From a bacterium (GTDB lineage Bacteria > Myxococcota_A > Bradymonadia > UBA7976 > UBA1532), in the NCBI GenBank assembly GCA_041389985.1, contig JAWKQS010000014.1, positions 14,553 through 78,552 of the forward strand: DNA of 64,000 nucleotides. Reading direction: 5' to 3'. Of the stretch, positions 1,851 to 16,743 are shown piece by piece. The notes under the pieces were generated by a model. That model made no database searches, was not told the DNA's origin, and saw only the letters and a program-made list of their open reading frames with translations. How positions within the stretch are numbered: the stretch's first letter is position 1; the number at the start of each line of letters is the position of its first letter. The translations under genes and the position numbers were made by a program.

Positions 1851-3693
1851 TGCGACGCATTGGCGGGTGGTGGGTGGTGGCCCTCCTGGCCCTCGGTGGC
1901 TGTGACGACGCGGGCACGACGGAGACGCCGGCAGACTGCCGCAACGCGGCGCTGGCGTGCGCGCCGGGGTTCGAGTGCGCGGCCGTCGGAGGGGGGTTCG
2001 AGTGCGTCCGGGCGGCCGACGTCGACGCCGACGGGGCGGACGCCCAGGCCCGCGACGCGGTGGCGGACGCGCAGCTCGAGCGAGACGCGGCGGTGGTCGA
2101 GCCCGACGCGGGTCCTTCGGCCCGACCGGGCGGGTCCTGCGGGCCCGATCTGCCCTGCCTCGACGGCGAGTGCCGCGATGACCTGCCCGGCGGCTTCTGC
2201 CGCGTCCCGTGCCAGGACGACGCCGCCTGCGGTCCCGACGCGGTCTGCTCGACCGGGGGGTCGTGCCGCACCCGCTGTGACGACCTGGGCTGCCGCCGCG
2301 GCTGGGTGTGCGACGGCCGCGAGGAGCCCGCCGTCTGCCGCCCCGACTGCAACGAAATCGCCTGTGGAAACGAGGACATCTGCAACCCCGACTCGGGCCT
2401 GTGCGAGCCCGCGCCGGTGTGCGTCCCCGAGACGTGCAACGAGAAGGACGATGACTGCGACGGCATGCTGGACGAGGGCGTGCAGAACGCCTGCGGCGGC
2501 TGCGGCGACGTCCCCGAGGAGACCTGCAACGGCCGCGATGATGACTGCGATGGCGCCGTGGACGAGGCCGTCCTGAATGCCTGCGGGGCCTGTGGCGACG
2601 TGCCCGAGGAGGCCTGCAACGACGTGGACGATGACTGCGACGGCGAGGTGGACGAGGGGCTGCGCAACGCCTGCGGGGACTGCGGACCGGCCCCGCCGAG
2701 CTCTGCAATGACATCGACGACGACTGCGACGGCACCGTGGACGAGGGCGCCCGCAACGCCTGCGGGGCGTGCGGCCCGCCGGCCGTCGAGGCCTGCGACG
2801 GCGTGGACGCCGACTGCGATGGCGCCGTGGACGAGGACGCCCCCTGCGCGGCCGGGCAGATCTGCCTCGAAGGGCGGTGCCGCCAGCCGCGCAGCGAGGC
2901 CGGCGGGCCGTGCCGGGTCGACGACGACTGCGCAGCCGGCGTGTGCAACGACGAGCCCATCTTCCCCGGTGGGTGGTGCCAGGTCGACTGCGCCCGTGAC
3001 GTCGACTGCGGCGCCGCCGCGGCCTGCCTGGACGTCGGCGTGCTGGCCTGTCTGGAGCGCTGCGACGCGGCCGCCGACTGCCGCCCGGGCTGGGTCTGCT
3101 ACGCCGACGACGGCATCTGCTTCCCGTCGTGCCAGAACATCGGCTGCGCCGCGGGCTACCTCTGTGGGGCCGACGGCTTCTGTGCCATCCCCGTCCTGAA
3201 CATCACGGTGACGCAGGTCTTCCTCAGCCCGGGCGTGAGTGATGGCAGCGCCTGGGATGGCTTCGGCAACGTGGGCCAGGCCGACTTCGCGGCCGCCGCC
3301 CAGGCCGCGCTGTCCGGTAACCTGGCGAGCCTCACCGCGGTGGCGGCCCAGTTCGCCAACGCCGCCTACGCCCCGCCCGATCCGTTCGGCACCGCCACGC
3401 TGCTCCAGGGCCCCATCAGCCGCTCCCTCAACCTGGCCGAGATCCAGGACACCTACTCGCCGCAGTGGGCTGGCATCTCGTGGCGCGTCGCCCTGGACCC
3501 CGCCGCCGACACCCGGGTGCGCATCAGCCTGACGGACGCGGACCTGGCCAACGACGACCCCATCGGCACCGTCGAGGTGGGCCAGGCGGACCTCATCGCG
3601 GCCCAGGCCGCGGGCCGCGTCTTCCCCGTCGCCACGGTGAACCAGGGCAACGGCCACATCATCGCCGTGGCCATCAGCGTCCGCGCCGAGTAG
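1851..3693 (+). CDS. Cys-rich secreted lipoprotein with tandem CxxDDDCDGxxDE...NACGxCG repeats (MopE-like putative metal-binding motif); apparent -1 frameshift near 2690-2700
   Basis: Signal/lipobox MRRIGGWWVVALLALGGC. At least six copies of the CNxxDDDCDGxVDEGxxNACGxCG repeat. The repeat continues in a second frame (ORF 2737..3693) after a single-base loss in a ccccgcc run. Confidence 0.6.
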
Positions 3694-7979: not shown

Positions 7980-8010
7980 TGGTGGCGTGAGCCGTACCGG
8001 CGCCCTCGAC

Positions 8011-8464
8011 GGCGTCCGGGGCACCCCCTGCCCACCTCGAACCGCCCTCGACCGCGTCCGGGGCACCCCCATGCCCACCTCGAACCGCCCTCGACCGCGT
8101 CCGGGGCACCCCCTGCCCACCTCGAACCGCCCTCGACCGCGTCCGGGGCACCCCCCTGCCCACCTCGAACCGCCCTCGACCGCGGCCGGGGCACCCCCCT
8201 GCCCACCTCGAACCGCCCTCGACCGCGTCCGGGGCCCTCCGATCCTGCCTCGGAGTCGCCCCGACCGGCCCCCGGGGCCCTCCGATCCTGCCTTCGAGTC
8301 GCCCCGACCGGCCCCCGGGGCCCTCCGATCCTGCCTTCGAGTCGCCCCGACCGGCCCCCGGGGCCGTCCGATCCTGCCTCCGAGTCGCCCCGACCGGCCC
8401 CCGGGGCCCTCCGATCCTGCCTTCGAGTCGCCCCGACCGGCCCCCGGGGCCCTCCCCGCCCCCC
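8011..8464. repeat. Two adjacent direct tandem-repeat arrays: unit A about 42-43 bp x5.6 (8011-8249) and unit B 43 bp x5 (8250-8464)
   Basis: Unit A is cgccctcgaccgcgtccggggcaccccctgcccacctcgaac. Unit B is cgatcctgcc(t/c)(t/c)(c/g)gagtcgccccgaccggcccccggggccctc. Copies are near-identical, head-to-tail with no spacers. The unit length is not a multiple of 3. Confidence 0.85.
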
Positions 8465-8534
8465 TCGAAGCGCCCGCTTGAATCCCGCCGCGCCCCGTGG
8501 CCCAATGCCGCAGGGCGATCGTCGGGAGCATCGG

Positions 8535-10751
8535 GTGTACTACTGCCGCCGCTGCGAGATGGGCCGCGCCCTGGCGGCCACCCCATGCCGCCACGGCCCG
8601 ACGCCCCTGGTCAGCCTGGCGGGCTTCACCGTCGGCAGCTTCATCGGCCAGGGCGCCCACGGCCGCGTCTTCGGCTGCACCGCCGACGGCCGTGAGTGGG
8701 CCGTCAAGATCATCGACCTGCGCACCGCCGTCAGCGGCGCCGACATCCGCCGCCTCGTCGACCGCGAGAAGGCCGCCCTCGTGCGCCTGCGCCACCGCCA
8801 CGTGATCGCCCTGCACCAGACCGGCGAGCACGACGAGCTGCTGTTCCTGGTGGTCGAGCGCCTGGAGGAGACGCTGCGCCAGCGCATGCAGCAGCCCATC
8901 GCCCTGCCCCGCGCCCTGGAGTACGCCGCCTGCCTGGCCGACGCCCTGGCCTACGTCCACGACGCCGGGTCGCTGCACCGGGACGTGAAGCCCGAGAACA
9001 TCGGCTTTCGCCGCGACGACTCCCTGGCCCTCTTCGACTTCGGCCTGGCCGCCGACCGCACCACCGGCCGCGCCGCCCACACCACCGGCGTCGTCGGCAC
9101 CTGGCCGTACGCGGCCCCCGAGCAGATCCTGACCCGGGAGAGCGACCAGGCGACGGACGTCTACAGCCTGGGCGCCGTGCTCTTCGAGCTCTTCACGGGC
9201 GGCTCCCACCGCCCCGTCCCGGATCAGCTGAACCCCGTCGCGTGGCTCGCCCAGCCCATCCCCGCCTGGCCGACCGAGCGGGCGCTGCCGGTCGGGATCA
9301 CCCCCCTCGCCGACCTCATCCACGCCTGCCTCGCCCGCGAACCCGGCACCCGCCCGGCCATGTGGCAGGTGCAGGACGCCCTGGGCGAGCTGGCCGACCG
9401 GGCCCACCTGGACTTCGCGCGCCTGGCCGGCGAGCACCAGCGGCTGACGCGGGAGGTGGAGGCCGCCCGCGCAGAAGCCGCTGATCTGACTGCGAAATCC
9501 AAGCAGGCCAGGACGACCGCCCAGCAGGCCGAGGCCCGACGCGCCACCGCCGAGGCCGAGGGCAAGCGCCTCGCCGAAGAGCTCGACCGCCTGCGCGCCG
9601 AGGCCGCCCGGGCCGAGGACGAGGCCCAGCGCGCCGCCGCCAGCCGCAGGCGAGACGCCCAGGAAGCCGAGACGCGGGCCGCGAAGGCCGAAGCCCGGCG
9701 CGAGGCCGCCGAGGCGAAGCGCGCGACCGCCGAGGCCAGCGTCACGGCGCTCCAGGCCGAGCGCGACCGGCTCACGAAGGAGCTGGAGCGCTTGCGGACC
9801 GGGGAGACGTCGTCGACGGAGCCATATCCGGAGGCGATGAAGCACGCCCGTGAGGCCCTCGGGACGAAGCGGGCGCAGGCCCCGCCGCCGACCGCCGGCC
9901 AGCTCATCGCACCAGCGACGGCGACCCGACCCGCGCTGCGGTGGGTTCCGTCCGGCACCTTCACCATGGGCAGTCCCCCCGACGAACCGGGCCGAGGCGA
10001 CGACGAGGTGAGGCACCCGGTGACGCTGTCCTCCCCGCTCCTGGTGATGGAGACGCCCATCACCCAGGGCCAGTGGGCAGCGCTGCTGGGCACGCGCCCC
10101 TCGTACTTCCGCCAGGGCGGCGACACCTGCCCGGTGGAGCGGGTGAGCTGGTACGAGGCGGTGGCGTTCGCGAACGCGCTGTCGGCGGCGGAGGGCCTGA
10201 CGCCAGCGTACCGGGTGGGGCCAGCGTCGGGCACGCTGGGCGGGGGGTTGGCAGCGGGCCAGCCATGGGCCGCCGGCGACTTCCAGTACGCTTCGGTAGA
10301 GCCGGTGCCGGGGGCGAGCGGCTACCGCCTGCCGACGGAGGCGGAGTGGGAGGGCTGGCCCGCGCAGGGACGCCGGGGGCCATCTACGCGGGAACGCTGG
10401 AGATTCTGGGCGAGCGCAACGCCTGCCCTGGACCCCATCGCCTGGTATGGGGGCAACAGCGCCAAGGCGACGCACCCGGTGGGGCAGAAGGCGGCCAACC
10501 CGTGGGGCCTGCACGACGTGCTCGGCAACGTCTACGAGTGGTGCTGGGACGGGTATGCCCCCTACCCGACGGGCATGCAGCAAGACCCACACGGCCCACC
10601 CACCGGCGTCCACCGGGTTGTCCGTGGCGGGTCGTGGATCACGAACGCGCGGTGGGTGCGGTCGGCGAACCGCAACCACTGCGGCCCGGTCAGGCGGTAC
10701 GCGGTCATCGGGTTCCGCCTCGTTCGCCCCCCCAGCTCGGTCGGACCTTGA
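8535..10751 (+). CDS. DGR target 1: Ser/Thr protein kinase, coiled-coil, FGE-sulfatase (C-type lectin fold) domain with VR at the C-terminus
   Basis: Hanks kinase motifs IGQGAHGRVF, HRDVKPEN, DFG and APE. Long Ala/Glu/Arg coiled coil. FGE-sulfatase signatures RLPTEAEWE, THPVGQKAANPWGLHDVLGNVYEWCWD and RVVRGGSW. Start chosen at GTG 8535 (GGGAG RBS 6 nt upstream; VYYCRRC zinc-ribbon N-terminus like the paralogs). Alternative in-frame starts are ATG 8505 and TTG 8478. Confidence 0.8.
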   Translation: MYYCRRCEMGRALAATPCRHGPTPLVSLAGFTVGSFIGQGAHGRVFGCTADGREWAVKIIDLRTAVSGADIRRLVDREKAALVRLRHRHVIALHQTGEHDELLFLVVERLEETLRQRMQQPIALPRALEYAACLADALAYVHDAGSLHRDVKPENIGFRRDDSLALFDFGLAADRTTGRAAHTTGVVGTWPYAAPEQILTRESDQATDVYSLGAVLFELFTGGSHRPVPDQLNPVAWLAQPIPAWPTERALPVGITPLADLIHACLAREPGTRPAMWQVQDALGELADRAHLDFARLAGEHQRLTREVEAARAEAADLTAKSKQARTTAQQAEARRATAEAEGKRLAEELDRLRAEAARAEDEAQRAAASRRRDAQEAETRAAKAEARREAAEAKRATAEASVTALQAERDRLTKELERLRTGETSSTEPYPEAMKHAREALGTKRAQAPPPTAGQLIAPATATRPALRWVPSGTFTMGSPPDEPGRGDDEVRHPVTLSSPLLVMETPITQGQWAALLGTRPSYFRQGGDTCPVERVSWYEAVAFANALSAAEGLTPAYRVGPASGTLGGGLAAGQPWAAGDFQYASVEPVPGASGYRLPTEAEWEGWPAQGRRGPSTRERWRFWASATPALDPIAWYGGNSAKATHPVGQKAANPWGLHDVLGNVYEWCWDGYAPYPTGMQQDPHGPPTGVHRVVRGGSWITNARWVRSANRNHCGPVRRYAVIGFRLVRPPSSVGP
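10603..10736 (+). repeat. DGR variable repeat VR1 (last about 45 codons of target 1)
   Basis: 134 nt identical to the TR except at 9 positions, all of which are adenines in the TR (A to T or G). Confidence 0.85.
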
Positions 10752-10815
10752 GTCTAGAGTCTAGAAAGTGTGTTGTGCGCGGCAGATCTGCCGTGGCGCG
10801 GCACTCCGCGGCAGA
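10752..10815 (+). promoter_or_regulatory. Conserved post-VR element (palindromes TCTAGAgTCTAGA and CGGCAGATCTGCCG); candidate cruciform/hairpin next to the IMH region
   Basis: Starts right after the target-1 stop. A near-identical copy (2 mismatches) follows the target-2 stop in the same relative orientation (13186-13250). Further GGCAGATCTGCC-type palindromes at 10831-10844, 10857-10876 (perfect 20-nt palindrome) and 10893-10904. Confidence 0.6.
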
Positions 10816-10933
10816 CGCCGGCACCTTCTTGGCAGGATCTTGCCGACTGGGTGCCGTCATCGGCAGATCTGCCGATGGCGGCAAGACCGCCAACGCCGAT
10901 CTGCCGCATTCGGCAATCGCTCAGGGGGTCCCC

Positions 10934-11467
10934 ATGGAGCTTGACCTGCGCCAGGCGGCGGCGCTCATCGGCCGGCGCGAGCGGACGCTGCGCGACCAGC
11001 TCGTCCGGGGCGCCATTCGGGGCCGGAAGGTGGGTGGTCGCTGGGTGGTGCGCGAGGAAGACCTGCCCATCGACGAGGCGCGGCGGCAGACGCTGCGGGG
11101 CCGCGCGGACGCAGTGCGCGCGAGCGTCGAGACGGCCATCGCACGGCGCCAGCCAGCCATGACCATCGAAGACGTCGAGGTCTTCCGCCTGGGGCGCGAA
11201 GCGCTCCACCGCCTCGACGCCGGGCACGGCGAGATCGCGAGCGCGATCCGGGAGGCCTTGCTGCACATGGGCGTCGCCCACCATGAGTACGACGCGGGCC
11301 GCAAGCAGGCCGAGTGGGGGCGAGCCCGGATTCAGCTCGCCCGCGCCGTGCTCCTGCGCCTGCTCCCCGCCGCCACCGACTCCACTGCCGAGGTCGCGGA
11401 CGCCCTGGAGCGCGACGTCATCCCCCGCCTGGGTGGCCTGCTCCGCCGCACGGCGGAACGCCCATGA
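10934..11467 (+). CDS. Excisionase-family helix-turn-helix DNA-binding protein (DGR-associated)
   Basis: ATG 10934 after AGGGGG. N-terminus LRQAAALIGRRERTLRDQLVRGAIRGRKVGGRWVVREEDL matches the excisionase/MerR-like HTH pattern (...GRRWRI.REDL). The stop overlaps the next start (ATGA at 11464-11467). Confidence 0.6.
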   Translation: MELDLRQAAALIGRRERTLRDQLVRGAIRGRKVGGRWVVREEDLPIDEARRQTLRGRADAVRASVETAIARRQPAMTIEDVEVFRLGREALHRLDAGHGEIASAIREALLHMGVAHHEYDAGRKQAEWGRARIQLARAVLLRLLPAATDSTAEVADALERDVIPRLGGLLRRTAERP

Positions 11468-11800
11468 AGCAGGCACCGCTGGCCGTGTTCGCCCACGATC
11501 TGGCGGTGTGGCTGCATGGGCAGGCACAGCGCGCCTCGGTCGCCCACCAGGCGACGGGGCTGCCGGCGGCCGCCGCGGCGCAGAGTCGGACGCTCCTCAT
11601 CCAGGTGAGTCTGGCGCTCACGTTCCGCGAGGGCCGAGGCGAACACCAGCGCGGGGCGGACGAGGCCCTCGCGAGCCTACGGGTCTTGCTGCGGCTGGGA
11701 GAGGCCATCGGCTGGCTCACCCCGGCGGGCCTGCTGCACGCCGCCGCCCTCATGGATCCGGCGGGCCGCATCCTGGGCGGCTGGCGCCGGGGGCACCAGC
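11464..11800 (+). CDS. avd: Avd-like accessory variability determinant (3' end uncertain; ORF formally runs to 11991)
   Basis: Helical protein of about 110 aa. Its C-terminal segment ...LRVLLRLGEAIGWLTPAGLLHAAALMDPAGRILGGWRRG resembles the Bordetella bAvd C-terminus (...VGRILGSWIARVNRKG) of the four-helix-bundle family. Translationally coupled to the HTH gene. The tail beyond about 11800 is low-complexity and overlaps the convergent RT gene. Confidence 0.5.
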
Positions 11801-12732
11801 AGTCCCAGGTGGGCGGCGAGGCTGCGCTCGACGTCGTTGGGGGCCCCTCCCAGGGCGCTGGTGACACGCTGCCCGAGCCGGCGCCAGGCCCGCGGCAGGG
11901 GCTGCGCGCCCGCCGTCGACACCGCGTGGCCCAGCCCATGGAGCACTTCGCCGCGGTGGATGACGGGCGCGTCGGGCCGCTTGAGCCGTAGGCCACGCTC
12001 GGCCTCCAGCCAGACTCCCAGGTCGGTCCGGATCCGCCGGAGTTGCCGACGATCGTCGGAAAACATAAACAGATCATCCACATAGCGTACGTAGCCAGGG
12101 ACGCGAAGGGTGCGCTTGACCCAGGCATCGAGGCCCGAAAGGTAGACGTGGGTGGCCAGAATCTGACTGGTCAGCGCGCCGATCGGCAGGCCTCGACCCG
12201 GTGGTGGCCAGTCGGCCGGCAGGCCCATGAAGGCCCGGACGTCGGTACGGCGGTACAGGGTCGTGCCCTGGTCGAGGATGCGGCCCACCAGCGCCAGCAC
12301 GGGCGGTTCGCGCACGAAGGCGGCGAGCAACGCATGCAGACGCTCCACCTGCACGCTCGGGAAGAAGGCGCGCACGTCCAGATGCAGGGCAAAGCGATGG
12401 CGGCGCTTCAGCCTGAGCAGCGCCAGCACGGCCCGGTGGGTCCCGAAGCCGGGACGACAGGCGTGGTTCTCGGGCATCAGCCGGCGCTCGATGGCGGGCC
12501 AGAGGGCCGTCATCAAGGCCGTGTGCACGACGCGGTCCTCGATGGGCGAGCGGGCGATGACGCGGGGCTTGGGATCCCGGATGAGGAGAGGCTCGCAGGG
12601 GGCGGGCTGCCAGGTCTCAGCAGCGAGGGCGGTCGCCAGCCGGAGGGCGACCTCCTCCCGGCGAAAGAAGAGCCAGGCGCCCTCAGGGCGGTGCCGCTTG
12701 CCACGCAGCGTCCGGTCGACCGCCGCCAGCAA
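11677..12732 (-). CDS. DGR reverse transcriptase
   Basis: RT motifs: N-terminus LLAAVDRTLRGKRHRPE...LLIRDPKPRVIARSPIEDRVVHTAL. FFPSV. DGR-specific motif 4 IGALTSQ (about 12163-12183). YVDD box GYVRYVDDLFMFSDD (about 12073-12084). C-terminal ...ERSLAAHLGL thumb-like segment. The start is uncertain (TTG 12732 proposed; no in-frame ATG; ORF frame open up to 13227 through the TR). Confidence 0.8.
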   Translation of the reverse strand: MLAAVDRTLRGKRHRPEGAWLFFRREEVALRLATALAAETWQPAPCEPLLIRDPKPRVIARSPIEDRVVHTALMTALWPAIERRLMPENHACRPGFGTHRAVLALLRLKRRHRFALHLDVRAFFPSVQVERLHALLAAFVREPPVLALVGRILDQGTTLYRRTDVRAFMGLPADWPPPGRGLPIGALTSQILATHVYLSGLDAWVKRTLRVPGYVRYVDDLFMFSDDRRQLRRIRTDLGVWLEAERGLRLKRPDAPVIHRGEVLHGLGHAVSTAGAQPLPRAWRRLGQRVTSALGGAPNDVERSLAAHLGLLVPPAPAAQDAARRIHEGGGVQQARRGEPADGLSQPQQDP

Positions 12733-12887
12733 TGCCGCAGGATCCGTGATGCGCGGGAAGAGGCCGCCGACGCTACGCAGAGGTGCACCCGCGGGCGTTC
12801 GACCGGACGTGCCGTCTACCAGGACGCGGGTGCGAGGTCGGCCGGGGCCGACGGCTGGACGCCTGCTCGGGGCCACGCAGGCCGCGG

Positions 12888-13021
12888 GCTGGGGGGGCGA
12901 ACGAGGCGGAACCCGATGTTCGCGTTCCGCCTGACCGGGTCGTTGTGGTTGCGGTTCGCCGACCGCACCCTCCGCGCGTTCGTGTTCCACGACCCGCCAC
13001 GGACAACCCGGTGGTCGCCGG
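12888..13021 (-). repeat. DGR template repeat (TR)
   Basis: 134 nt with 23 adenines, including 7 AAC codons in the VR reading frame (WNTNARRVRSANRNHNDPVRRNANIGF). Matches VR1 and VR2 except at adenines. Lies immediately 5' of the RT on the same strand. Confidence 0.85.
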
Positions 13022-13185
13022 ACGGCATCCACCCTGCCCGCATGATGAGGACGGCTGACCCGGCGGCGCAAGCCCCGCGGTGCCGGGTTCGGCAGCTCCG
13101 GGTGCCGCTGGCGGCAAGAAGTGATCTGAATCTGCCGCACACGGCACCGAAACGGCAGAAACCTGCCGCGGAGTGCCGAATCTTG

Positions 13186-13250
13186 CCGCGGAGTGCCGCG
13201 CCACGGCAGATCTGCCGCCCACAACACACTTTCTAGAATCTAGACTCAAG
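13186..13250 (-). promoter_or_regulatory. Second copy of the conserved post-VR palindromic element (downstream of VR2)
   Basis: The reverse complement matches 10752-10815 with 2 mismatches. An additional CGGCAG-AAAC-CTGCCG hairpin lies at 13153-13168. Confidence 0.6.
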
Positions 13251-15959
13251 GCTCGACCAGGCTGGGGGGGCGAACGAGGCGGAACCCGATGACCGCGAAC
13301 CGCCAGACCGGGTCGTTGAGGACCCGGTCCGCCGACCGCACCCTCCGCGCGTCCGTGTCCCACGACCCGCCACGGACAACCCGGTGGTCGCCGGTGGGTG
13401 GGCCCGATGGGTCCGGGTGGACGCCCGGCGGGTAGGGGGCGTACCAGTCCCAGCACCACTCGTAGACGTTGCCGAGGACGTCGCGCAGGCCCCACGGGTT
13501 GGCCGCCTTCTGCCCCACCGGGTGCGTCCCCGAGAACTTCGCCGGCCGCTGCATCTCCGGCCAGCCCGACGAATCGTAGCCCTTCTCCACCCCGCTGTTG
13601 CCCCCGTACCACACGATGGGGAGTCCAGGGGCTGGCGCGTTGTTCTTGCCCAGAATCTCCAGTGTTCCCGCGTAGATGGCCTCCCGACGTCCCCGCACGG
13701 GCCAGCCACCCCACTCCGCCTCCGTCGGCAGGCGATAGCCGCTCGCCCCCGGCACGGGCTCTACCGAAGCGTACCGGAAGTCGCCGTCGGCCCATGCCTT
13801 GTCCGCTGGCAGACCCCCTGCCGAGCGTGCCCGACGCCTGCCCTACCCGGTGGCTGCGTCAGCCCTCCGCCTTCGACAACGCGCTCGCGAACGCCACCGC
13901 CTCGTACCAGCGCTCACCTGCCCACTGGGCAGGGTGTCGCCACACGCCCCGAAGTACGAGGGCTTCGCCTCAGCACCGCAGACCACTGGCCCTGCGACCT
14001 CCGTCTCCATCACCCACAGCGCCTGAGTCACCGTCACCTCATGCGGCACTCCTCATCGTCGTCGCGGCCCGGCCTCGCCCGCGCGCCGGCATGGCAGTGG
14101 CCCTTCTTGCCGTCCGGGCTGCCCATGCAGAACTCCCAGCGGGGACGGCGGAGTGCGGGGCGCTGGGGGTGGCGCTGGCGACCAGGGCACCCGGTGCGGG
14201 AGTGGAAGCGGTGGGGCGTCAACTGCCTGGGATGGTGGTGCCGCGTCCACGGCCAATGGCGGCCGGGCCGCATCAACGGCGAGGGATGGTGGTGCCGCGT
14301 CCATGGCCACCGGCGGCCGGGCCGCATCAACGGCGAGGGATGGTGCTGCGTCCACGGGTTCGCGCTGCTCTTCGCCGCCGGCCGAGGCGCCCACGACGAG
14401 CCCAATGCCGATTCCACGAGCAGGGCGCCTCCGACGCTCGCGCCGAGCATGACCCGGCGGCGGCGGGCGTTATGGCTGCGCTGTGCTTCCAGGCGCTCGG
14501 CGTCGGCCAGGGCCTGCCTGGCCGACGCGAGACGCTGGGCCTCCGCGCTCGCCTCGGCGCGCGCGCTTCGCACGGCGTCGCGGGCGATCTCGCTGGTGGC
14601 GCGCAGAGCGGTCGCCTCCCGACCCGCCTCGCTGATGCGCTCCTGCAGGGTCTCCAGCTCCACCGCCAGGCGGGCGGTCGCGACCGCCCGCCGTGTCGCC
14701 AGGTCTCGCTCCAGGGCCTCCACGGCAGCGGCCCGCTCAGCAGCCAGGCGGTCCCTCTGGGCCCGCTCCTCCACCTTCGCATGCTTCAGCTGTCGGTCCG
14801 CCGACGCCCGCGCCTCCGCCAAGGCGGCCTCCGCGGCCGCACGCTGGCTGGCCAGCTCGCGGGCCAGAGCATCCGTGGCAGCGGCGCGCTCCTCCGCCAG
14901 CTTCTTCCGCTGCGCGGTCTGTTCGGTCCTGGCCTGCCGGGCGATGCGCTCGGCCGCGGCTCGCGCCTCGGCGACCGACGCCTGGGCCTCTGCGAGCGCC
15001 GCCTGCTCGGTAGCCAGCCCAATCTCGACCTGGACGAAGCGGGCGTGGGCCTCGCCCAGGCCGGTGCCCAGGCGGTCGGCCAGTTCCGCCACGACGTCCA
15101 GCACTGCCCAGGTGTCTCGCGGGCGAGCGCCTGCCTCGACCGCGAGGCACTGGAGGATGAGCCGGTCCAGCGCCGCAGGACGGGCGGGGTCGGGCGGGAG
15201 CGGTGGCACCGGCTGGCGGGCGTATGCCTCGTAACCCCCTGAAAACCCTTGGGGTCGGTGGCTCCTGCCGGCGATGAGCTCGTAGAGGATGGCCCCGAGG
15301 GCATAGCGGTCCGACCAGGGACCGTCGCGGCCAAAGACCTTCGGAACGAGCTGTTCCGGCGCAGCGTAGGGCCGACTGAACCCCTTGACGCCCACCGTGG
15401 TGGCGCTGTCGCCGCGGCGCACGCCGGCCAGGCCGAAGTCGAAGACGTAGAGGTGGTCGCGGTCGTCCAGGCCCAGGTTCTCGGGCTTCAGATCGCGGTG
15501 GATGACGCCGACGTCGTGCATGTAGGCCAGCGCGTCGGCGAGCTGGGCGGCCAGCTGAATGGCCCGAGGCAGGGTCAGCAGGCGTCCCGGAGCCGCTCGC
15601 AGGACGTCCTCAAGCGTGCGCGGGACATACTCGGTAATGAGGCAGAGCCGACCCGCGACCTCTTCGGCATGGATCAGGGCGATCACATGGGCATGGGCCA
15701 GCTGCGTCAACGTCGCGCGCTCGCGGCTGAACAGCTCGTGGGCGTCGTCAGGTCGATCGAAGCCGTTGGGGTCGATGACCTTGATCGCCCGGCGGAAGTC
15801 GCCCTGGAAGCACTTCGACACCCGGGAGGCGCGCGACTTCTGGATGGACGCCCCAGCCTTCCAGCTGTCATCCAGGCCCGGGATGAGCGCCGTCGGGTGG
15901 TGGCCCTCGGTGCACCGGTCGCCGTCGGTGGGGATGAGGCAGAGCGGGCAGAGGTACAT
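13246..15959 (-). CDS. DGR target 2: Ser/Thr protein kinase, coiled-coil, FGE-sulfatase (CLec) domain; reading frame interrupted at least 3 times (likely sequencing errors)
   Basis: ATG 15959 (MYLCPLC zinc-ribbon N-terminus). Kinase motifs HRDLKPEN, DFG and APE. Coiled coil. FGE domain split over ORFs 14034..16010, 13843..14049 and 13246..13755 (HEVTVTQALWVMETEV..., RLPTEAEWGGW..., THPVGQKAANPWGLRDVLGNVYEWCWD, RVVRGGSW), ending in VR2. Confidence 0.7.
13261..13394 (-). repeat. DGR variable repeat VR2 (3' end of target 2)
   Basis: 134 nt. It differs from the TR at 11 TR-adenine positions plus one C-to-G. Confidence 0.8.
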
Positions 15960-16149
15960 CAGCCGTCCCACCCCAGCTCGAGCTCCAGGCCGCCACCTTC
16001 CAGCAGGCACGGCCCGCGGGCGGTCTGGCCGCGGGGGAGGCGGCGGCCGTCGACGCGCAGGGTGCCGGCGGCGTCCTGGCGGCCGACGGTGAGGGCGTCG
16101 CCGGTGACGTCCACGAAGAAGTGGACGCGGGCCATGCGGTGGGTGGCGC

Positions 16150-16600
16150 CGAGCAGGGGGTGGAAGCCAGCGATCGGGTCGGCGGTGTGGCGGCGGCCGA
16201 AGTGATGGCGACCAGGGGGAGCGTCAGCGTGCCGAGCCAGGCAGGCTCGTCCTCGATGGGGCGGGCGGCGTGGGCCGAGCGCCAGCGGAGGGTGGCGGCG
16301 GTCGCGGCGCGCGGGGCGCTGGGACCGGCGGGGGGGTGCTCCAGCACGGCCAGCAGCTCATCCAGGAGCGGGATCGGCGGCGTGATGACGAGGAGCCGCG
16401 CGTTGCGCAGCCAGGCCGCGAGCGCGAAGACGTCGCTGTACAACTCGTTGAGATCGCTGATGATCTGGTCACCGGGCCGGTCCTTGACGGGCAGGGCGTT
16501 GATGCGGCGCTGGTCGAGGCCGACGAGCAGCATGCGACGACGCTGGGGCTCGCAGAGATCCGTCGCGACGACGGCCGTTTGCAACGCCTGGAGCTGCTCC
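16150..16600 (-). CDS. Hypothetical protein (boundaries uncertain)
   Basis: Protein-like segment KVITREQLQALQTAVVATDL...LLVITPPIPLLDELLAVLEHP within ORF 15868..16827. Candidate GTG start about 16600. The tail is low-complexity. Confidence 0.3.
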
Positions 16601-16743
16601 CTGGTGATCACCTTGCCCTCGTGCCCACCGGTCCCGAGCGAAGATCGCCCGATTGGCGTGCGGGGGCAAGGGGGCGGCGCTGCACTTCCTCGCCTGCCCA
16701 CGAAGGTTGCGGTAGGCTCACATTCCCCGGAGGAGCGCGCGCC

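Follow-up and report, generated by a model that had tools for sequence, protein, structure and literature searches.

Evidence for a chromosomal diversity-generating retroelement with kinase/C-type-lectin-fold targets in a 74%-GC bacterial genome

Diversity-generating retroelements (DGRs) have been described whose diversified proteins join kinase, TIR or NTPase modules to C-type lectin (CLec) domains, an arrangement discussed as a 'conflict system / antigen sensor' of multicellular-type bacteria (class b12 of Wu et al. 2018, PMC5758913; Kaur et al. 2020, PMC7159879; Dore et al. 2024, PMC10907252). Such CLec targets on kinase and TIR/NTPase proteins, opposite-strand architectures, the initiation of mutagenic homing (IMH) sequence with its counterpart IMH*, and a structured RNA downstream of the template repeat (TR) have all been reported (PMC5758913, PMC7159879, PMC10907252, preprint 10.1101/2023.10.23.563531), and the accessory genes named by Wu et al. 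(PMC5758913) are avd, HRDC, MSL and CH1. The DGR of Bordetella phage BPP-1 comprises the reverse transcriptase (RT) bRT, Avd, a TR, the Sp RNA and Mtd (PDB entries 8ub7 and 4dwl); residues F66, R74, I76, I181, G182 and Q187 of bRT touch the template base and the incoming dNTP, and a published survey predicted stem-loops in 207 of 278 Avd-containing DGRs (preprint 10.1101/2023.10.23.563531). Here we analyse a 64,000-nt stretch of contig JAWKQS010000014.1 (assembly GCA_041389985.1; hereafter the window, 74% G+C), and conclude with high confidence that a minus-strand open reading frame (ORF) within it encodes the RT of a chromosomal DGR, complete with a TR and spacer RNA, an Avd partner and kinase/C-type-lectin-fold targets, in which one variable repeat (VR_B) is the active recipient and another (VR_A) looks frozen. 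The RT is an ordinary and apparently active member of the known DGR class.

The original prediction described a minus-strand ORF at 11677..13227 bearing a series of RT motifs, and all of these were recovered at or near the places it gave (Table 1); judged from the letters of the ORF, the motif set is real and far beyond chance. The frame ends at a TAG stop (11679..11677), is unbroken across 367 codons and keeps all catalytic and template-contact residues. The region matches Pfam RVT_1 (E 1.2e-11) and has 406 homologs in the database (best E 1e-181). In group II intron and retron RTs motif 4 reads QGxxxSP, whereas DGR RTs carry [I/L/V]GxxxSQ. The I/LGxxxSQ motif on which the DGR assignment had been built is indeed present, as IGALTSQ, and the YxDD box placed at about 12073-12084 reads YVDD. 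Among the homologs of at least 300 aa, [ILVM]GxxxSQ occurs in 118 of 118 and QGxxxSP in none (0/118).

A PDB sequence search with the RT (phmmer) returned 8ub7_A first (E 1.1e-25), with group II intron RTs at E 1e-8 or weaker, and a profile built from 16 family members matched the same chain at 2.2e-47 (165 bits, residues 3-306 of 328), its next matches, at about 80 bits or less, again being group II intron RTs. Moreover, when an AlphaFold2 model of the RT (48-sequence alignment; mean predicted local distance difference test score, pLDDT, 88.7) was submitted to Foldseek, 8ub7_A was the top match (E 1.6e-18, TM score 0.83 normalised to the target). This chain is described in the PDB as 'Diversity-generating retroelement (DGR) ribonucleoprotein reverse transcriptase', and its numbering agrees with the bRT contact residues of the preprint, of which R74, I76, I181, G182 and Q187 are kept in the window RT when the two are aligned. 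The GenBank record names the gene merely 'RNA-directed DNA polymerase' (protein MEZ4472097.1).

As had been proposed, the TR lies directly 5' of the RT on the same strand (13021..12888), and the 5' part of the formal ORF, which had been taken for the TR region read in another frame, proved to consist of the out-of-frame TR and non-coding sequence. All TR adenines (23/23) fall on codon position 1 or 2 of the target frame, in which the TR encodes ...SWNTNARRVRSANRNHNDPVRRNANIGF. Two VRs correspond to it, both at the C-terminal end of the FGE-sulfatase (C-type lectin fold) domain of a Ser/Thr-kinase protein, and in the two together 20 of the 21 TR/VR mismatches are at TR adenines; a search elsewhere in the window returned no further VRs. 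The final 29 nt are GC-rich and identical in the TR and the VRs; beyond them VR_A and VR_B share a sequence that differs from that of the TR, and the palindromes TCTAGAnTCTAGA and CGGCAGATCTGCCG lie downstream of the VRs. DGRs carry an IMH at the 3' end of the VR and a non-identical IMH* at the TR, often with an inverted repeat after the VR only. The GC-rich 3' segment and the TR/VR divergence observed here resemble this pairing and may be called IMH-like.

Convergent with the RT is an ORF assigned to Avd (accessory variability determinant), which matches bAvd PF22296 (1.8e-5) and NF033474 (4e-6). A profile of 24 syntenic Avd homologs matches only the BPP-1 Avd chains (4dwl_A, 9e-6; 8ub7_B, 2.3e-5).

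Between the TR and the RT lies a spacer that, judged by comparative sequence analysis, is a conserved and structured RNA that codes for no protein, the analogue of 'Sp' in BPP-1. On an alignment of 25 loci RNAalifold predicted 19 pairs, of which 16 show compensatory changes; the pair cells are 91% paired, a level reached by 0 of 500 shuffles, and slid controls gave 28-53%. The single-sequence fold has a z-score of -1.1, comparative analysis alone being informative here. Nearly invariant adenosines in the spacer's GGUAG element and in its CGA near 12801 are candidate cis-priming sites. RNA duplex prediction for a BPP-1-like TR:Sp duplex or an upstream/downstream 'cPRT Stop' duplex gave uninformative output in this GC-rich sequence.

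A mechanism can be predicted from homology with the BPP-1 system of Bordetella phage. The RT and Avd would together bind an RNA that contains both the TR (13021..12888) and its structured spacer (12887..12781). The RT would then copy the TR into cDNA, misincorporating opposite template adenines, and the cDNA would take the place of the VR with which a Ser/Thr-kinase/C-type-lectin-fold gene ends, so that up to 23 first or second codon positions of the ligand-binding surface could be randomised.

The RT polypeptide probably starts at codon 12780, where a CTG (12780..12778) occupies the conserved RT start position. All full-length homologs that were aligned (14/14) begin with M(R/K/W)TVxGLF, their first residue falling on codon 12780; the window has LRSVGGLF there, and L7 and L11 of the RT are nearly invariant among homologs. 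In the genome loci whose alignment reaches residue 1, the codon at this place is ATG in 24 and GTG in 8; in this census CTG occurs only in the window locus and in a sister metagenome-assembled genome (MAG; GCA_041390005.1, contig JAWKQU010000017.1), whose locus is about 99% identical. Residues 1-16 align to bRT residues 8-22 and are modelled at pLDDT >93. The earlier statement that the frame lacks an in-frame ATG is true of the N-terminal region, the first ones being internal (12513 and 12477). JGI metagenome contigs, searched with a 29-mer across the RT start for ATG or GTG variants, gave no matches. At the other end the conserved core finishes near 11794, homologs stopping a few residues past ...AAHLGLL; the window ORF continues for 38 codons beyond the homologs' end, in a tail that is modelled at pLDDT <50 and runs antisense to the Avd ORF.

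The GenBank annotation instead has the RT translated from GTG 12876 (399 aa), which is the nearest canonical in-frame start upstream, with an open frame behind it; we consider this start unlikely. It would add a 32-residue Arg/Pro-rich N-terminal extension of a type seen in no aligned homolog, and no Shine-Dalgarno-like sequence was found before it. The codons in question (12876..12781) have a G+C content of.81/.81/.69 at positions 1/2/3, as against.77/.52/.86 in the RT body, and are not coding-like. They also coincide exactly with the spacer RNA, the helices of which covary in 24 relatives and always lie upstream of the RT start. We regard these 32 codons as conserved non-coding RNA and place the start at 12780, not at 12876. 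The GenBank start is thus probably mis-annotated, the annotated N-terminus being in reality a conserved RNA element.

The two target genes bear on the state of the element. In target B, whose FGE-sulfatase domain covers residues 489-750 (Pfam), a pair of compensating indels shifts the frame of about 22 codons (near 10340..10418) relative to the relatives' canonical EWEYLARAGT..AIYAG.L.ILGERNAPALDPIAWYGGNS. Target A falls into a kinase ORF (16010..14034) followed by an FGE fragment (13755..13246; FGE-sulfatase 2e-23), and its FGE domain has several frame breaks and one in-frame stop within 13760..14100. Since the indels of the sister MAG form another pattern at the frame-shift sites of both targets, decay and assembly error are both possible: target A is either a decaying paralog or mis-assembled, and the indels of target B are likewise either real decay or assembly error.

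When the window was compared with the sister locus (L001), the differences were found to cluster in the DGR region. The two copies of VR_B differ by 12 substitutions and one deletion, all of them at TR-adenine positions; the remaining VR_B differences, an extra base and a shorter run of C in the sister copy, resemble assembly noise. VR_A carries the same adenine-site substitutions in both assemblies and therefore appears static. Differences at adenines only, as in VR_B, would imply retrohoming after the two populations diverged, and hence an RT that is expressed despite its CTG. This sequence comparison points to recent activity, with VR_B in the intact target B as a currently active recipient, while VR_A in the disrupted paralog looks frozen.

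Several observations weigh against this account. A canonical start codon is absent at the conserved RT start position, and CTG initiation is rare; the Avd matches fall below the curated Pfam and NCBIfam cut-offs; and target A is disrupted and target B carries a compensated frame shift, be it through decay or assembly indels. In addition, the sister locus is noisy, with a garbled TR and many indels, including some in the RT, and the VR_B difference could in part be a population-consensus artefact. Such an artefact is disfavoured because the VR_B differences are strictly restricted to adenine sites. Where the two RTs disagree, it is the window residues that match the family consensus. As for the sister RT itself, two tight clusters of differences lie within window positions 12160..12510, one altering conserved residues of the motif-4 region (WPTPGRCLPFGALSSQ) and the second turning TALWPAIE into TASGYWRE, and indels occur also near 12598..12660; these clusters and indels, together with the garbled TR, probably arose as artefacts of consensus building or assembly from a mixed population.

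If the element were a relic, the RT would have lost its start codon (ATG or GTG to CTG) and would not be made, the TR/VR differences would be historical, and the cassette would be decaying along with its targets. This would suit the confinement of CTG to the window locus and the sister MAG, the frame breaks and stop in target A, the compensated frame shift in target B, and the fact that the RT and Avd ORFs both overrun their conserved ends. We nevertheless regard a relic as quite improbable, given an RT ORF that is intact with all its catalytic and template-contact residues, a VR_B that between near-identical assemblies shows its 12 TR-adenine differences and zero non-adenine substitutions, and a TR in which the adenines are all preserved. 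An RT initiated at CTG 12780 also fits the sequence better than one initiated at TTG 12732, the start put forward in the original prediction: TTG 12732 is a canonical alternative start, in frame and just within the conserved region, yet its use would remove 16 residues (RSVGGLFPRITDPAAL) that are conserved in homologs, aligned to the bRT N-terminal extension (8-22) and modelled with the confidence given above, and no relative begins there, relatives starting at the 12780 position, which leaves it very improbable. An assignment to the RTs of group II introns, retrons or defence systems (DRT/Abi) has practically no likelihood, as the protein's weak NCBIfam matches (TIGR04416 group_II_RT_mat, 68.8 bits; retron St85, 35 bits; Drt3a, 32 bits) and PADLOC matches (generic RT and weak UG models) are expected for any prokaryotic RT and the former lie far under the curated cut-offs (300, 235 and 200 bits, respectively), the RT has no maturase (X) or endonuclease domain and a bRT-like length (330 conserved residues), and motif 4 is IGxxxSQ, with a cognate TR/VR pair and Avd adjacent. 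An Rfam search of 8000..16500 (E up to 1) gave no intron or retron RNA and a single chance-level match, and both a group II intron RT/maturase and a retron, DRT or Abi RT were rejected. According to the original prediction, a profile search that placed the RT among group II introns or retrons, with a motif 4 of QGxxxSP, would speak against a DGR; since those models stay far below their cut-offs and motif 4 is not QGxxxSP, the DGR assignment stands.

Table 1. Positions of the features discussed (window coordinates, except for the last row, which refers to the related locus L002)
Feature	Coordinates	Strand	Evidence or remarks
DGR reverse transcriptase gene (start at 12780 probable)	11677..12780	-	RVT_1, homolog alignment, start-codon census, PDB sequence and profile searches, AlphaFold2 model, Foldseek
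RT motif LLAAVDRTLRGKRHRPE	12732..12682	-	
RT motif DPKPRVIARSPIEDRVVHTAL	12576..12514	-	
RT motif FFPSV	12366..12352	-	
RT motif 4, IGALTSQ	12183..12163	-	Aligns to bRT I181-Q187
RT motif 5, catalytic YVDD box	12084..12073	-	Aligns to YMDD of bRT
RT C-terminal segment ERSLAAHLGL	11829..11800	-	
TR, 134 nt	12888..13021	-	107 nt upstream of RT; 3' GC-rich segment, then IMH*-like divergent sequence
TR-RT spacer, structured RNA	12781..12887	-	Alignment of 25 loci, covariation
Spacer, conserved CCCCGAGCAGG	12872..12862	-	
Spacer hairpin P1	12852..12837	-	
Spacer helix P2	12833..12825 paired with 12793..12785	-	Ends 4 nt before CTG
Spacer GGUAG	12820..12816	-	
Spacer hairpin P3	about 12816..12801	-	
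VR_A	13261..13394	-	3' end of target A; 12 mismatches to TR, 11 at TR adenines; hypergeometric P 3.6e-9
VR_B	10603..10736	+	3' end of target B; 9 mismatches to TR, 9/9 at TR adenines; hypergeometric P 2.8e-8
Target A, Ser/Thr kinase + coiled-coil + FGE-sulfatase	13246..16010	-	Pfam; tblastn against target B; three-frame comparison with L002 targets
Target B, intact 757-aa ORF	8478..10751	+	Pkinase 4e-38, coiled-coil, FGE-sulfatase 7e-39
Avd	11464..11991 (conserved core 11464..11793)	+	Convergent with RT
Protein with HTH_17 and four-helix domain, 177 aa	10934..11467	+	Stop overlaps Avd start (ATGA)
Region downstream of VR_B	10737..10933	+	IMH-like divergent sequence, palindromes, GGCA/TGCC array
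Palindrome TCTAGAGTCTAGA	10753..10765	+	
CGGCAGATCTGCCG, two copies	10780..10793 and 10861..10874	+	
Region between VR_A and TR	13022..13259	-	IMH-like sequence, palindromes (13232..13244 and 13204..13217), GGCA/TGCC array
L002 regions with GGCA/TGCC arrays	9484..9712 and 11860..12043		

The surroundings of the two targets hold further features. A gene directly upstream of target A and overlapping its start (15868..16614, minus strand) matches EAD5 (effector-associated domain 5, E 4e-6), which connects the targets of the DGR with the adaptor repertoire of 'conflict systems'. The stretch of target A that separates the coiled-coil from the FGE domain holds a 27/54-nt tandem repeat (14216..14349, minus strand) coding for recurrent PWTRHHHPSPLMRPGR-like units. 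The target B start (8478) is immediately preceded by a tandem array (8001..8475) in which a 43-nt unit recurs about 11 times with 86-97% matches; the array lies within the Pro-rich tail of a formal 1558-aa S8-peptidase ORF, its period is not a multiple of 3, and in the sister MAG the S8 peptidase is called with 1065 aa, a separate gene of 331 aa coming after it.

Running convergently, the ORFs of the RT and of Avd share 315 nt (11677..11991), as both read past their conserved ends in 74%-GC sequence, the Avd ORF for 65 codons beyond its conserved GGWRR end, antisense to the RT; the relative L002 has an overlap of 33 nt. This layout implies antisense transcription through both 3' ends. The gene preceding avd encodes a helix-turn-helix (HTH) protein that is a candidate clade-specific DGR accessory, its structure model, with the four-helix domain, resting on 4 sequences. 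A Pfam search of 34 members of its family showed nothing beyond HTH_17, and in a limited search of the literature we found no description of an HTH_17 accessory. Its C-terminal domain was considered as an Avd paralog and rejected, hhalign of the two family alignments being not significant (probability 0.2%, E 0.34). A 100%-identical HTH protein is known, the encoding contig of which is not on record.

About 40 related loci share the order HTH, Avd, (TR), RT on one strand, with the HTH stop usually overlapping the Avd start, and their hosts belong to Myxococcota, Planctomycetota (including the isolate Engelhardtia mirabilis), Acidobacteriota and other phyla. HTH-Avd is convergent to TR-RT only in the window and L001, and in L002 and L003 (RT 66% identical). 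In both the window and the L002 lineages the post-VR sequence is duplicated, standing before the HTH gene and before the TR. The targets in L002 are TIR-kinase-FGE proteins, and this locus has three gene-terminal VRs with IMH and downstream sequence that differ mostly at adenine sites, along with two internal repeats in which neither the IMH nor the sequence after it is present and changes at sites other than adenine are numerous.

Dense GGCA/TGCC arrays come after both VRs and stand in front of the TR and of the HTH gene, with 13 copies in 10737..10933 and 15 in 13022..13259, against about 2.7 expected per 200 nt. The arrays hold three CGGCAGATCTGCCG palindrome copies in all. The motif cores are conserved between the window and L002 lineages and the spacers vary; upstream of the HTH gene the GGCA motif is enriched in some loci, and others bear different, lineage-specific repeats. 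These arrays may be operator or target-marking sites. Tentatively, and as a doubtful proposal, we suggest that the HTH protein is a dedicated and so far undescribed DGR accessory factor, coupled in translation to avd across the about 40 loci, perhaps an Avd-like bundle fused to a DNA-binding domain, and that it might bind the GGCA/TGCC arrays; separately, the RT would be active as a DGR enzyme that initiates at a CTG 4 nt past a spacer RNA helix. If true, the HTH protein could mark target sites or co-regulate the two convergent units. Elsewhere in the window, a coding tandem repeat (2428..2836, plus strand; 90-nt period, about 4.3 copies) encodes Cys-rich CNxxDDDCDGxVDEG..NACGGCG units, and a single chance copy of GGCAGATCTGCC lies just past it at 2855.

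Taken together, these results add a well-resolved DGR from an unclassified 74%-GC MAG lineage, with RT, TR, spacer RNA, Avd, two VRs and kinase/C-type-lectin targets, and the comparison of two near-identical MAGs offers a view of in-situ adenine-site turnover in VR_B and stasis in VR_A. The CTG at the start position, the overlapping convergent RT and Avd, the apparently decayed second target and the HTH accessory beside GGCA arrays are minor curiosities, and the general understanding of DGRs is unchanged by this cassette.

Set beside the BPP-1 DGR, the window element has an RT alike in length, fold, IGxxxSQ and YxDD motifs and contact residues, an Avd partner, a TR directly upstream of the RT and a structured spacer RNA between the two. 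The TR/VR differences are likewise adenine-specific, the VR likewise sits at the C-terminus of a C-type-lectin-fold domain, and a GC-rich IMH-like segment and inverted repeats follow downstream of the VR. However, the RTs are only about 25% identical, and the window element is chromosomal whereas that of BPP-1 resides in a phage. The BPP-1 target is a tail fibre, in contrast to the two VRs in cytoplasmic-type Ser/Thr kinase/FGE-sulfatase proteins found here. Moreover, the window avd is not upstream of the TR but convergent with the RT and overlapping its 3' end, an extra HTH gene precedes avd, and a CTG stands at the RT start.

In its targets the cassette resembles the CLec conflict-system DGRs, with which it shares an N-terminal Pkinase signalling domain joined to a C-terminal FGE-sulfatase/CLec domain that carries the VR, an EAD5 gene (beside target A), TIR-kinase-FGE targets (in L002) and the use of one TR for several targets; the pairing of HTH with avd and the convergent layout, on the other hand, are not described in that literature (PMC5758913, PMC10907252). 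As in the opposite-strand cassettes of Wu et al. 2018 (for example B3, TR-(avd)-RT), avd lies on the strand opposite to TR-RT, which means that at least two transcription units are needed. Unlike in B3, the order in the window is TR-RT-(avd)-(HTH), with overlapping 3' ends and a post-VR copy before both HTH-avd and TR-RT. The cassette fits the emerging picture in which DGRs diversify the sensor domains of kinase-type conflict and signalling proteins.

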